Positions 15,442-58,394 of a stretch of 64,000 bases of DNA are shown here, piece by piece (position 1 is the first letter of the stretch; each line of letters opens with the position of its first letter). Source of the stretch: Rhodospirillaceae bacterium (GTDB lineage: Bacteria > Pseudomonadota > Alphaproteobacteria > UBA7985). The notes beneath the pieces were generated by a model. The model was given only the letters and a program-made list of their open reading frames with translations. It was not told the origin of the DNA and ran no database searches. Made by a program: the position numbers and the translations under genes. Location of the stretch: contig JAYQIC010000007.1 in NCBI GenBank assembly GCA_038141425.1, forward strand, positions 75,554 through 139,553, read 5' to 3'.

Positions 15442-15472
15442 CGCGCGCGCGGCGGCGCCTTTTCGAGCCGAG

Positions 15473-15505
15473 AAAAAGCCCGCGGCGGCCGCTGCGGGCT
15501 TTTTC
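15473..15505. terminator. Bidirectional rho-independent terminator between convergent ALDH (+) and rpmA-fusion (-) genes
   Basis: AAAAAGCCCGCGGCGGCCGCTGCGGGCTTTTT: GC-rich hairpin flanked by an A-run and a T-run. Confidence 0.6.
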
Positions 15506-15545: not shown

Positions 15546-16238
15546 TCAGCCCATGTCGGCGGCAGCCTTGGACCAGTCGCCGAGCTTGGACGCCGCGAGG
15601 CCGGTCTCGCCAGCGAGCCACTCCAGATCGGCTTCGGAGAAGCCGCTGAGCTGGGCGTACATGTAGACGCCTGCGCCGTTGAGGGCTTCGACAGCCTTCG
15701 GACCGAGGCCTTTAATTGCCTTCAGGTCGTCGGCGTCGGCCGGTGCCTTTTTCAGCAGGCCCTTGGGCGCGCCGCCAGCCTTGGCCGGAGCCGCAGCCTT
15801 CTCGGCCTTTGGCTTAGCAGCGGCTTTGGGCTTGGCTTCAGCCTTGGCAGCAGACTTTTCCTCTGCCGGCGCTTTGGCAGCCTTCGTGGAAACCGAGGCC
15901 GACGCAACGGCTACGGCAGCAGCAGCCTTGGCCGAAGCCGTCGGTGCACCGATCTTCTTGTTGCTCGAAGCCGGGGTATTCGGGTTGTCATCGACGATGG
16001 ACACCAGCGAACGACCGAGCAGGCCAACGTGGAACTTCACGAAAACATCGGAGAGGGCGAACAGCGTGTGGTCACGGCCCAGGCCCATGTTGGCGCCCGG
16101 GTGGAACTTGGTGCCGCGCTGGCGCACGATGATGTTGCCAGCGGTGACAGCTTCGCCGCCGAAGCGCTTGACGCCGAGGCGCTTGCTTTCTGAGTCTCGA
16201 CCGTTGCGCGAACTACCGCCTGCTTTCTTATGTGCCAT
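15546..16238 (-). CDS. rpmA: 50S ribosomal protein L27 homolog fused to an Ala/Lys/Pro-rich linker and a C-terminal helix-hairpin-helix domain (230 aa)
   Basis: N-terminal 85 aa [28 protein letters not shown]...GRDHTLFAL is canonical bL27. It then continues in frame through [30 protein letters not shown] to [39 protein letters not shown] (HhH-like). No rplU upstream. Confidence 0.75.
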
Positions 16239-16348
16239 GTTCTGGCTCCCTTTGGGGACATCTCAAATCAGACGCCGTGTTTAGAGCCTGCTTGCGGCTT
16301 TGTCCACCTGCGTCGCGTGCATGAAAGCCAGCCCTCAGCGTCCTAGCC

Positions 16349-18319
16349 TCAGCCCAGATACATGACGTCTGTTTCTGGGAGCGCGTAGACCGGTTCGCCG
16401 GTGTACAGCGTCAGTTGATCGCCGGTGTTGAAGTCCATGACGATGGCATAGCCGTCATAGCGGGTCGTATAATCGGCGGGGGCAAAGCCGACCAGTGCGA
16501 TTTCGTCGACGCCCGATTCGAAATCACTCACCTCGTCGATGCCATAACCCGGGGCAAATACGAACACATCCGCGCCACCGCCGCCGTAGAGATAATCGCG
16601 CCCCGGGCCGGGGTCGAGACGGTTGCCAACCTCGTTGCCATAGAGGCTGTCGTTGCCTGATCCCGTGGTTGCGTTCTCGATCACCACGTCCAGCGCGATC
16701 CCGAGGTTACCGTAGCTGTATTCGCGCATCAGGTCGGTCAGCTCGTAGAGCTTCGAGGTTGCATCCGAGAACACCACTTCGAAGGCGACCCCGCCCGCCC
16801 AGTAGCCGGGGGCATCAGACACAATGGCCATCTCGGTTTCATCGGCTGAGATGTCTGCTGACAGGTGGCTGCCCCCGCTCAGGATATTGACGCTGTGGAT
16901 GGTCACCGGATTGTCGGTCAGTTCTTCGACCTGACGCACCCAACGGGCCTGCGGCGGCGCACCGACGAGGCTGAGGTTGCCGGCATTCAGATCGATCGAC
17001 GCGTTGCCGAAACCGGTGTGCCGGATTTCGTCAATCCCGCCGGCGTCCCAGATGGTCTCGAACACCGGCGTATTGCTGTCGAAGGTATAGACCGTGTTGT
17101 CGGCCCGGGTGGTCATGTTGGCACCGTAGAGGTGCTGCAGCGCCGCGATGTCGTAGATCATCGGCTGCGCGGGCGAGTGCCCGCCTTCGCCGGTGGACCA
17201 GGACAGCGTGCCGCCCATGATGGTGTAGAGGTCATCGGCCACCCACGGGTCCATCGAGCGTCCTTCGAAGGCATGATCCAGCCCCAGCGCATGGCCGATC
17301 TCGTGCACTAGAACCGTAGCGCCACCGCCCAGCGGGTCTTCAAAGTAGAAATCGCGCATGGCCACCGGGTCGAGGTGGATATCGCCACTGTCTTCAACCG
17401 CGCGTGGGTTGTCGCCCGGCCGGGACCATCGCCCAGCCTTCCGTCATCCCGGTGGGGTCATCGACGAAGCCGCCGCGGTCGTAGGCGAGGTTGATGTGAC
17501 CGCGGTTGAGGCCGTCGGCGGTGTAGGTGCCCGCCCCCGGTCGGTGACTTCGGTCAGCCGGATGTTGGCGACTTCTTCGATCGCCGCCATGATCTCGCGG
17601 GTGCGTTCCTGTTCCAGCGCGCCAAAGGGCTGGATGCCGGCGAAACTGGTGCTCGGCATGGACTCGACCGCGAACGAGTACGTCAGCTCGACCGGCTCGT
17701 TGTATGTGCCGCTGCCGTTCCAGTGCGCCATGGGCGAGACGGGATCGTCCTCAGGGAAAAGCAGCGCGTCGATGTTCGGATCACCGGTGAAGTAGGGGTC
17801 GGTGGGGGCTGGCGGTGTCGGCGGTCCCCAAGGGTCGCCACCGTCGGAGAAGAGGGCCACCGCGAGGCTGCCCATCGTGAACAGTCCTGCCGCGACGAAG
17901 GCACCGCCGGCGAGCCACTCGATGGTTTCGAGGTCAAAGGGGCGGGTGCGCGCGCTCGCCATCAGCATCGACTGTGTCGGGCTCAGATTGCTCTGCCCGG
18001 CGAGGGCGTTGGGGTCGATACTGCCGTCGGCGCCGAGCATGGCCAGCGCTTCGCGGACCGGCGCAGGCACGTCTTCTGCCGCCACTAAGGTCTCGCCCTC
18101 AGGCCCGCTGGCGCGGTAGGTCCCAGGTGTTAGCTGCTCGTAGTCGATGCCGTTGAACAGCAGGGCACCGGCTGGTTCCGCAGCGGCGATCCCCGCACTC
18201 CCGGCCAGCAGCAGCAGGCGTCGTCGGCGTGGCCTGTAACCGCGTTGCTTTCGCTGTAGCATTGACCCATCCCACGTTTCGTCGGTGCTCACAGTGGACG
18301 CACTCTGCCCCAAAGTCAT
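16349..18319 (-). pseudogene. Serralysin-like (M10B) secreted metalloprotease with C-terminal RTX calcium-binding repeats; at least two frameshifts (about 17370-17440 and about 17530)
   Basis: HEIGHALGLDH zinc motif, DIAALQHLYG Met-turn region, GGxGxD repeats (GNDSLYGNEVGN, GGGGADVFVF). N-terminal part is in ORF 17444-18319, catalytic part in 16349-17365. Confidence 0.7.
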
Positions 18320-25360: not shown

Positions 25361-25435
25361 GGGCGGTTAGCTCAGCGGTAGAGCACCACGTTGACATCGT
25401 GGTGGCCACTGGTTCGATCCCAGTACCGCCCACCA
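25361..25435 (+). tRNA. tRNA-Val (anticodon GAC), CCA encoded
   Basis: GGGCGGT acceptor stem, GCTCAGCGGTAGAGC D-arm, anticodon loop TTGACAT, GGTTCGATCC T-arm, 3' ACCGCCCACCA. Confidence 0.9.
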
Positions 25436-43010: not shown

Positions 43011-44808
43011 ATGGCGACCACTGAGTACCAGTTTACTGACCATAGCTTTGACGTGATTGTCGTCGGCGCCGGGGGCTCCGGCCTCCGCGCGACGCTTGGC
43101 CTGGCCGAAGCCGGGCTGAAAACTGCGAACATCACCAAAGTCTTCCCGACCCGGTCCCATACCGTTGCTGCGCAGGGCGGTATTGCTGCGTCGCTGGGTA
43201 ACATGGGCGAAGATGACTGGCGCTGGCACATGTACGATACCGTGAAGGGCTCGGACTGGCTGGGTGATCAGGACGCCATCGAATACATGACCCGCGAGGC
43301 AGTGCCAGCGATCATCGAACTCGAGCACTACGGCATGCCATTCTCACGGCGCGAAGACGGCAAGATCTACCAGCGCCCCTTCGGCGGCATGACCACCAAC
43401 TACGGCGAAGGGCGGGCAGGCTCAGCGCACCTGCGCGGCGGCGGACCGGACCGGCCACGCCATGCTGCACACGCTCTACCAGCAGTCGCTGCGCGCTTCG
43501 GCAGAGTTTTTTATCGAATACTTCGCCATTGACCTGATCATGGATGACGACGGCGCCTGCCGCGGCGTGGTGGCGCTGAAAATGGACGACGGCACGCTGC
43601 ACCGGTTCCGGGCGCAGCGGACCATCCTCGCAACGGGCGGCTATGGCCGCGCCTACTTTTCCTGTACGGCTGCGCACACCTGCACTGGCGACGGCGGCGG
43701 TATGGCCCTGCGCGCGGGTATACCGGTGCAGGACATGGAATTCGTGCAGTTCCATCCCACGGGCGTCTACGGTGTTGGCGCGCTGATCACGGAGGGTGCA
43801 CGGGGTGAGGGCGGTATCCTGCGTAACAGCGAAGGTGAGCGTTTCATGGAGCGCTACGCGCCATCGGCCAAGGATCTGGCTTCCCGTGACGTGGTTTCCC
43901 GCGCCATGACCATGGAGATCCGTGAAGGCCGCGGGGCAGGGGAAGACAACGATCACATCATGCTTGACCTCTCGCACCTCCCGCCGAGCCAGCTTGAAGA
44001 ACGCCTGCCCGGTATTTCGGAGACCGCGCGTATCTTCTCCGGTGTCGATGTCACCAAGGCACCGATCCCGGTCCTGCCGACCTGTCACTACAATATGGGC
44101 GGTATCCCGACGAACTATCACGGCGAAGTATTGCGCCCGACCGAGCGCGACCCAGAGGCTGTGGTTGATGGCCTGATGGCGGTGGGCGAGGCCGCTTGTG
44201 TCTCCGTGCACGGCGCGAATCGCCTTGGGTCCAACTCCCTGCTGGATCTTGTCGTCTTTGGCCGCGCTGCTGGTCTTCGGTGTAAGGAAATGGTCGAACC
44301 CGGCGCCAAGCAGCGCGATCTACCGGCTGATGCAGGCGACAACAGCCTCGCGCGGCTGGACAAGGCGCGCCACGCCAATGGTGAAACCGGGACTGCCGAC
44401 CTGCGACTGGAAATGCAGCGGGTGATGCAGAACAACTGCGCCGTGTTCCGCACCGGAGAAGTGCTGACCGAGGGCGTCGAGCTGATGGATCAGGCCTGGG
44501 CCAAGCGCGACGATCTTCGCGTTGCCGACAAGTCGCTGGTCTGGAACTCCGATCTGATCGAAACGCTCGAATTTGACAACCTGATCTACCAGTCTTCGGC
44601 GACGATCAACTCGGCCGCCAACCGCGAAGAATCCCGCGGCGCCCACGCGCGTGAGGATTTCCCCGAGCGCGACGACGATAACTGGATGAACCACTCGCTC
44701 GCCTGGATCGACGAAACCGGCAAGGCCGATATCACGTACCGCTCGGTGGTGATGCGTACCTTGACCAACGACGTCGCCGTAGTCGAGCCCGCCAAGCGGG
44801 TCTACTCA
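43011..44808 (+). CDS. sdhA: Succinate dehydrogenase flavoprotein subunit; frameshift near 43440 and apparent loss of the stop codon (ORF reads through into sdhB)
   Basis: [18 protein letters not shown] fold, HTVAAQGG covalent-FAD His region; collinear ORFs 43011-43532 and 43462-45048; expected C-terminus ...KRVY at 44805. Confidence 0.85.
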
Positions 44809-58321: not shown

Positions 58322-58394
58322 TGGACCATACAGGATTCGAACCTGTGGCCTTCCGATTGGAATCGGACGCTCTATCCTGCTGAGCTAATGGCCC
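58322..58394 (-). tRNA. tRNA-Trp (anticodon CCA) with an apparent 6-nt anticodon loop (TTCCAA; expected TTCCAAA). No encoded CCA.
   Basis: Reverse complement GGGCCATTAGCTCAGCAGGATAGAGCGTCCGATTCCAATCGGAAGGCCACAGGTTCGAATCCTGTATGGTCCA folds as a cloverleaf with 7/4/5/5-bp stems and a GGTTCGAATCC T-arm. Confidence 0.8.

Follow-up and report, generated by a model that had tools for sequence, protein, structure and literature searches.

A conserved fusion of ribosomal protein bL27 to a helix-hairpin-helix tail in an uncultured marine alphaproteobacterial clade

Bacterial ribosomal protein bL27, the product of rpmA, is usually minimal, with a length of about 85–90 amino acids (aa), and its N-terminus reaches into the peptidyl-transferase centre. 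Here we examine an rpmA gene in a 64,000-nucleotide (nt) stretch of DNA from a Rhodospirillaceae bacterium (GenBank assembly GCA_038141425.1, contig JAYQIC010000007.1, positions 75,554–139,553 of the forward strand), which as a whole is referred to as the window. The product of this gene has three parts: a bL27 core, a disordered linker rich in Ala, Lys and Pro, and a C-terminal domain of about 65 aa of the double helix-hairpin-helix type, (HhH)2. The fusion is real and conserved and does not arise from a frameshift artefact. The L27–tail architecture is genuine, conserved and undescribed; the module itself is already part of annotation models. We consider it likely that this gene is the housekeeping, and probably the sole, rpmA of an uncultured marine alphaproteobacterial clade, and that it encodes, away from rplU, a tailed bL27 that would bind nucleic acid.

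Architecture of the rpmA product

Window positions 15546–16238, on the minus strand, hold one uninterrupted, ATG-initiated open reading frame (ORF) of 230 aa. Its parts are listed below; AF2 stands for AlphaFold2 and pLDDT for the predicted local distance difference test score of its models.

15546..16238, minus strand: rpmA coding sequence, 230 codons plus a stop codon at 15546–15548; bL27, linker and (HhH)2 tail
15984..16238, minus strand: bL27 core, residues 1–85; AHKKAGGS tail and beta-sandwich domain
15876..15983, minus strand: conserved post-core segment, residues 86–121; 33/36 identity with relative P0054
15759..15875, minus strand: Ala/Lys/Pro/Glu low-complexity cationic linker, residues 122–160; assigned from composition, pLDDT and length variation
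15549..15758, minus strand: C-terminal (HhH)2 domain, residues 161–230; assigned from an AF2 pLDDT of 92, Foldseek and profile matches

A preliminary description of the locus, made from the sequence alone, had reported a canonical bL27 N-terminus with the AHKKAGGS motif, and the curated protein models bear this out. The bL27 match spans residues 1–81 across Pfam and NCBIfam and well exceeds the curated cut-offs of both (PF01016: 122.2 bits against 20.5, residues 2–79, E = 9e-36; TIGR00062: 122.7 against 90.35). The core is 75.6% identical to Escherichia coli L27 over 82 aa and 72–78% identical to canonical L27s, a level typical of orthologs. The protein begins with MAHKKAGGS, such that AHKKAGGS directly follows the initiator Met with no N-terminal propeptide, and residues M1, A2, H3, K4, K5, G8 and S9 are invariant in an alignment of 56 fused L27s.

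The extension adds about 145 aa to this core. Its first part, residues 86–160, consists of 39% Ala, 19% Lys and 11% Pro and has an isoelectric point (pI) of 10.3. The length of the linker varies among relatives, whose total length ranges from 209 to 257 aa. Residues 86–121 are nearly fixed in the comparison with P0054, while the synonymous sites of the linker (86–160) are saturated in the same pair; the segment is missing from the P0069 and P0075 subclades in the alignment. The protein has an exact match, P0001, at 100% identity, and more than 20 full-length relatives at 97% identity.

In the AF2 model the protein resembles beads on a string, with pLDDT values of 77–88 for the core, below 50 for the linker and 83–92 for the tail. 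The core is modelled as strands at residues 36–82, its N-terminal AHKKAGGS tail is disordered in this model of the isolated protein, and a low-confidence helix is placed at residues 101–115. Among solved bL27 structures none carries this extension, and we found no solved ribosome with a tailed L27. The literature that we searched likewise held no description of L27 or of other ribosomal proteins with this tail.

Conservation of the fusion

The fusion would dissolve if a missed stop codon or frameshift near positions 15985–16000 had joined a normal 89-aa L27 to a separate downstream ORF, as the preliminary description pointed out. The worry is reasonable because the window carries six private single-base indels over 10.7 kb relative to three close relatives, two of which split the neighbouring protease gene. 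Yet such an artefact is almost inconceivable here. Over 100 protein clusters drawn from ENA, JGI, NCBI and Logan data share the fusion, and over 60 full-length relatives of independently assembled origin, with identities between 97% and 40%, read through in one frame. The gene itself has zero indels relative to L001–L003, three 97%-identical metagenomic contigs. A break at this site is therefore excluded.

Downstream of the core, substitutions fall overwhelmingly at third codon positions of the fused frame. Relative to L001 there are 14 synonymous and 2 non-synonymous differences in the linker and 8 and 0 in the tail; because these differences are mostly synonymous, the extension is translated in this frame and under purifying selection. 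Relative to the more distant L004, dN/dS (the ratio of non-synonymous to synonymous substitution rates) is 0.086 for the core and 0.19 for the tail. Judged by these substitution patterns, all three parts of the protein are under purifying selection.

A search for the same fusion in related alphaproteobacteria, which the preliminary description had proposed, found it clade-wide, and the idea that it is unique to this genome is removed because the fusion is the norm for the clade. It recurs in three phyla, with Bacteroidota and Chloroflexota as the other two, and databases name the products simply L27.

Private substitutions in the core

The core of the window copy carries a cluster of changes of its own.

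16018..16045, minus strand: four private changes, G65V, Y66F, Q73L and R74L, in the L27 beta-hairpin; all at second codon positions, to T

The changed bases (16018, 16021, 16042 and 16045) all read T on the coding strand and lie within 28 bp. All relatives read DGYVKFHVGQRGRS at this stretch of L27, with G, Y, Q and R at the four sites. G65, which forms part of a near-invariant DG turn, is conserved in at least 90% of the 56 fused L27s, and V65 of the window departs from that core feature. The differences from L001 divide into 5 non-synonymous and 1 synonymous in the core, against 2 and 22 elsewhere in the gene (Fisher p = 8e-4).

This excess, together with the tight grouping of four non-conservative private changes of one kind, would be expected of a damaged allele, in which the substitutions are real and reflect relaxed selection or pseudogenisation. 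We nevertheless regard decay of this gene as very improbable, given that its frame, start, Shine-Dalgarno (SD) sequence and terminator are intact and that its remainder shows essentially only synonymous drift. The assembly contains other private errors, and a tight cluster of changes of the same type fits a consensus or polishing error, or one multi-nucleotide event, better than gradual decay. As private indels occur close by, the four changes are most simply read as a consensus or polishing error; they could also be a real multi-nucleotide mutation.

Genomic context of rpmA

A tblastn search of the 64-kb window found neither rplU nor a second L27, in agreement with the earlier observation that rpmA is not preceded by rplU. 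The neighbours named at that time, a convergent aldehyde dehydrogenase gene, a terminator and an upstream protease gene, are all present. Two non-coding features border the gene.

16239..16332, minus strand: conserved upstream region; TGGACA at 16306–16301, 17-nt spacer, TAAACA at 16283–16278, SD AGGGAG at 16251–16246
15472..15505, no strand assigned: GC-rich hairpin with an A-run before it and a T-run after it; 15 pairs (9 G-C), loop of 4

AGGGAG precedes the start codon by 7 nt. Between the window and L004 the upstream block of about 94 nt is almost unchanged, even though L004 lacks the upstream protease gene. A strict sigma-70 scan upstream of rpmA found no promoter; the conservation of the block suggests that it putatively comprises rpmA's own promoter and 5′ untranslated region. 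The hairpin is kept in relatives and resembles an intrinsic terminator working in both directions, for rpmA and for the convergent aldehyde dehydrogenase gene. With this promoter-like region, its SD sequence and the hairpin terminator, rpmA would be monocistronic.

The gene order dusA, rpmA, aldH-x-msrP-like-folD is found again in contigs from TARA and further marine sources, at protein identities of 97% and about 65–70%, and the protease gene is an insertion found in the closer subclade only. No rplU occurs within 10 kb of rpmA in L001–L006 or in the shorter flanks of L094–L098, and, among the matches listed, the flanks of all 16 loci from this alphaproteobacterial clade of fused L27s lack it. 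Again among the matches listed, which for other genomes were all canonical L27 loci, rplU is the immediate upstream neighbour of rpmA in 80 of the 80 genomes fetched. Two deep subclades, each at about 50% identity, place the fused gene elsewhere: in the P0069 subclade it lies between divergent rplJ–rplL and rpoB–rpoC, and in the other it adjoins acyl-CoA dehydrogenase genes. Compared with the usual rplU–rpmA operon, the window gene departs in gene order but not in protein family. For annotation, the lesson is that neither the detachment of rpmA from rplU nor its 140-aa extension is an error; both are traits of the clade.

Two rearrangements were seen at such loci. In L087 and L088 (8310–19580), from a deeper subclade, rplJ–rplL is inverted relative to rpoB–rpoC with the fused rpmA in between, which is unusual for so highly conserved a cluster. 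In the L001 strain, a glycosyltransferase/ABC-transporter island of about 12.6 kb lies between rpmA and aldH, flanked by a 396-bp direct repeat (96% identical) that comprises the last approximately 247 bp of rpmA and the terminator. The two copies (L001 10447–10842 and L092 8063–8458) lie on the same 618-kb contig, ERZ28548087, and the distal one is called as a 102-aa orphan ORF (P0121). Because the island is flanked by this repeat, the 3′ end of rpmA acts as a recombination or insertion site.

Housekeeping L27 or paralog

Outside the Alphaproteobacteria, the fused gene can occupy the canonical position. In the complete genome of Anseongella ginsenosidimutans (Bacteroidota) fused L27 follows a 103-aa rplU in a canonical operon, and in an Anaerolineae metagenome-assembled genome (Chloroflexota) it likewise follows a 103-aa rplU. 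The fused form is therefore most likely a housekeeping L27. The L27–HHH_5 proteins of Bacteroidota (Anseongella, Saprospiraceae, Lewinellaceae) and Anaerolineae share the domain order of the window protein at 39–48% full-length identity, are annotated ‘50S ribosomal protein L27’ and keep the rplU–rpmA operon in the examples read. They differ from it in that their linkers are all unlike the window linker and that the Anaerolineae and Anseongella examples have an extra C-terminal tail helix (TWPxQA...). The L27 fusions of alphaproteobacteria and those of Bacteroidota and Anaerolineae are probably of independent origin.

The preliminary description had left a choice between a divergent paralog and the only L27 of the cell with a novel extension. 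Its ‘only L27’ is favoured by the ortholog-like core and by the canonical operon elsewhere. Its ‘novel extension’ does not stand, as the linker and domain are already in the NuoE, bL21 and bS2 models (PRK12373, PRK12278 and PRK12311). On this reading the fused protein would enter the 50S subunit as the cell's L27, which the canonical operon position in other phyla supports indirectly, and the window rpmA would be the sole L27 copy of the genome.

Two points weigh against this assignment. The search covered the window and flanks, and a canonical rplU–rpmA pair elsewhere in the source genome is possible; in addition, the window allele may be miscalled or impaired. The first of these bears on an alternative in which the fused protein is a specialised second L27 with a conditional or extraribosomal role, and a short rpmA still follows rplU elsewhere in the genome. 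The position of rpmA away from rplU and among metabolic genes would suit a paralog, as would the unusual core substitutions of the window copy, and the comparison covered the window and the loci of relatives. We still judge a second L27 unlikely. The core evolves as an essential ortholog (dN/dS and identity to canonical L27s as given above), the fusion persists throughout the clade in three different genomic settings, including one within the rplJL/rpoBC cluster, and in other phyla it is the fused gene itself that occupies the rplU–rpmA operon. Among the matches listed, moreover, short L27 is absent from the 64-kb window and from the flanks of 16 clade loci.

Fold and sequence of the tail domain

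The preliminary description had proposed an extension of about 140 residues with an AKP linker and an HhH-like module; the fold is confirmed in the AF2 model. Built with 128 homologous tails, this model has a pLDDT of 92 and four main helices in a compact (HhH)2-type fold. Foldseek superimposes it onto the RadA/Rad51/Dmc1 N-terminal (HhH)2 domain with a root-mean-square deviation of 1.4–1.5 Å over 57–60 residues, at a query-normalised TM-score of 0.62–0.67 and a Foldseek probability of up to 1.0. RadA is also weakly matched by a profile of the tail. Sequence identity to these proteins is however about 20%, the Foldseek E-values exceed 0.1 and the window protein lacks the ATPase core. The resemblance to RadA/Rad51 is structural and does not amount to family membership.

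The domain (residues 161–230) has a pI of 4.6 and carries a KGLGPK hairpin motif, of which G177 and G179 are invariant. Two near-invariant arginines of the family are gone in the window subclade (GRxxRD to ASKLGD). Aligned with bL27 and HhH families, as had been suggested earlier, the protein lies far above the bL27 cut-offs and matches the HhH families weakly: it scores 16.7 bits against HHH_5 (PF14520; gathering cut-off 27) and 16.5 bits against HHH (PF00633; gathering cut-off 24). Many relatives have a precomputed PF14520 match. On the basis of the modelled fold, the tail HhH domain is predicted to bind the nucleic-acid backbone without sequence specificity.

A homolog search with the tail alone returned only two fragments of the same gene, one of which its source wrongly names ‘L21, partial’. 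For stand-alone tail homologs, sources give the names ‘predicted FEN-1-like 5′ DNA nuclease’ or ‘NuoE’. We treat the nuclease name as an annotation label: the tail comprises only the helical domain of about 65 aa, with no PIN-like catalytic domain, and no nuclease family in Pfam or NCBIfam was matched. A tail-like tblastn match at 44203–44286 of the window was also set aside as noise, being out of frame and containing a stop codon.

The tail module on other proteins

In NCBIfam, the linker and tail match the NuoE model PRK12373 (E = 1.4e-14), the long bL21 model PRK12278 (E = 7e-9) and the long bS2 model PRK12311 (E = 7e-7); each match is confined to the extension part of the model, which contains a COG3743-like domain. 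A profile of ten L27 tails retrieved 23,149 representative clusters at E <= 1e-3. Its top matches are proteins with 3–26 tandem copies of the domain, which Pfam scores as HHH_5, DUF4332 or Cdd1. Among Protein Data Bank (PDB) entries it matches Urf1/protein-3h of Rhodovulum sulfidophilum (9WQV, 9wqv_a; E = 2e-38) and protein-O of Dinoroseobacter shibae (8YY9, 8yy9_O; E = 1e-37).

In Citromicrobium, Chelativorans, Phyllobacteriaceae and Granulosicoccaceae, L21 ends in the module and a short L27 follows; the module is also found on bS2, bL31, bS16, NuoE, an HlyD-like protein and coiled-coil proteins of about 1000 aa. On L21, S2, S16, L31, NuoE and the window L27 the layout is common to all: a complete host protein, a low-complexity Ala/Lys/Pro/Glu linker and the C-terminal domain. 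At least five bacterial ribosomal proteins from both subunits (bL21, bL27, bS2, bS16 and bL31) therefore carry the tail, and the same module decorates complex I and a subunit of the reaction centre–light-harvesting 1 (RC-LH1) complex. The L27 fusion gives access to a very large family of domains, which have been attached repeatedly to ribosomal proteins.

The closest parallel among ribosomal proteins is the long bL21 (PRK12278, about 216–223 aa), which has the same succession of ribosomal core, cationic Ala/Lys/Pro linker and C-terminal domain of about 65 aa, and whose gene is normally the direct upstream neighbour of rpmA. Genomes with long bL21 differ from the window in that L21 is the host and L27 is short, canonical and in the operon. 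The extensions of NuoE (PRK12373), Urf1 and protein-O give the best sequence match for the window linker and tail, and they too have a long flexible loop; their hosts, unlike L27, belong to respiratory or photosynthetic membrane complexes, and Urf1 has an N-terminal transmembrane hairpin. In D. shibae protein-O a long flexible loop carries the C-terminal domain, for which no trace could be built in the map; what such domains do was called obscure (PMC12079452). In the Rdv. sulfidophilum complex only a truncated N-terminal fragment of Urf1 was present, and the functions of Urf1 were called unknown (PMC13066640).

Several further arrangements came to light. The host loci for bS2, bL31, bS16 and NuoE are L102 3800–5773, L104 9098–10216, L106 2007–2939 and L101 1007–1915, respectively, and the bS2 host has two tandem copies of the tail behind an Ala/Glu/Lys linker of about 200 aa. 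Three loci that were candidates for full-length L27 fusions (L034, L035 and L043) proved to encode an L21 tail followed by a short L27. In L016, L024, L030 and L070 the rplU products have a long Ala/Lys/Pro tail without the HhH domain, as do many alphaproteobacterial L21s, which indicates that linker and domain can occur separately. Giant proteins (P0248, 3033 aa; P0249, 3115 aa; P0250, 2280 aa) contain up to 26 tandem copies of the domain of about 70 aa, and membrane-anchored proteins with three tail copies are encoded at L107 8369–10552. The metagenomic protein P0076 (153 aa) is an apparent L27–L27 tandem, with a second GGSTRNGRDS... core after the first. Finally, the tail profile weakly matches the N-terminal approximately 60 residues of archaeal eL32 (9l94_Q, E = 0.002; Haloarcula marismortui L32e, 1s72_Y, weak at E of about 0.2), which may be a parallel ribosomal decoration with this type of domain; a literature search on 9L94 found nothing relevant.

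A proposed role for the tail

We propose that the bL27 core assembles into the 50S subunit as usual, where its AHKKAGGS tail could reach the peptidyl-transferase centre, and that the extension would leave the 50S surface as a flexible tether. The tail would then project from the subunit, and its Lys-rich linker and GxGPK hairpin would bind the nucleic-acid backbone non-specifically, on nucleoid DNA or on RNA. The bL27 of the window clade would in this way take the role that bL21 may have in many other Alphaproteobacteria. A single specific target site on the ribosome is unlikely, because the hosts span both subunits and unrelated complexes.

Binding of nucleic acid by the tail seems to us preferable to a role in protein–protein contact or localisation, and three observations count against it. 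The tail domain is acidic, which does not favour DNA binding; the window subclade has lost the two family arginines, which does not favour simple DNA binding; and the module occurs on the membrane-associated proteins NuoE, Urf1 and HlyD-like and on long coiled-coil proteins, to which a protein–protein or localisation role fits equally well.

It is possible, if somewhat unlikely, that the tail serves as a tag: the ribosomal proteins, complex I, Urf1 in RC-LH1 and phasin, which carry it, would all be drawn to one shared partner or site, for instance the membrane's cytoplasmic face or self-associated clusters. Besides NuoE, the HlyD-like protein and membrane-anchored coiled-coil proteins, its carriers include Urf1/protein-O, which is encoded between nuoE and nuoF; the ribosomal hosts are spread over the two subunits, which does not point to any one docking site on the ribosome; and proteins with 3 to 26 tandem copies exist. 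The acidity of the domain points the same way. What speaks for nucleic acid instead is that the fold and the GxGPK hairpin are as in (HhH)2 domains that bind the DNA backbone, such as the N-terminal domain of Rad51/RadA, and that the linker is strongly basic and resembles histone H1. The tag has no known partner, and its function is called obscure in the papers cited above.

A bolder version of the tag can be put forward as a doubtful conjecture. The tail would be a shared address that gathers ribosomes, complex I, RC-LH1 and polyhydroxybutyrate (PHB) granules on one scaffold, through homotypic or DNA-mediated contacts. Ribosomes would be addressed by bL27, bL21, bS2, bS16 or bL31, complex I by NuoE and RC-LH1 by Urf1, and the ribosomal tag would have passed from bL21 to bL27 as rpmA became detached from the rplU operon. 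If true, the L27 fusion would be the visible piece of an undescribed system for the spatial organisation of bacterial cells. Because a cultured carrier exists, A. ginsenosidimutans with its fused L27 in a normal operon, the role of the tail on the ribosome is directly testable.

Other features of the window

The private single-base indels of the window lie at 17419, 17539, 21300, 23307, 24118 and 25878; they reflect an indel-prone assembly or, alternatively, pseudogenisation of several genes. Those at 17419 and 17539 are the cause of the split in the protease gene (16349–18319, minus strand), which encodes a serralysin-like protease (Peptidase_M10_C) and appears as ORFs of 338 and 291 aa where relatives have a single gene for 637 aa. 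No rRNA or riboswitch was found in the window, whose sole Rfam matches are two tRNA genes, at 25361–25432 (plus strand) and 58322–58394 (minus strand).

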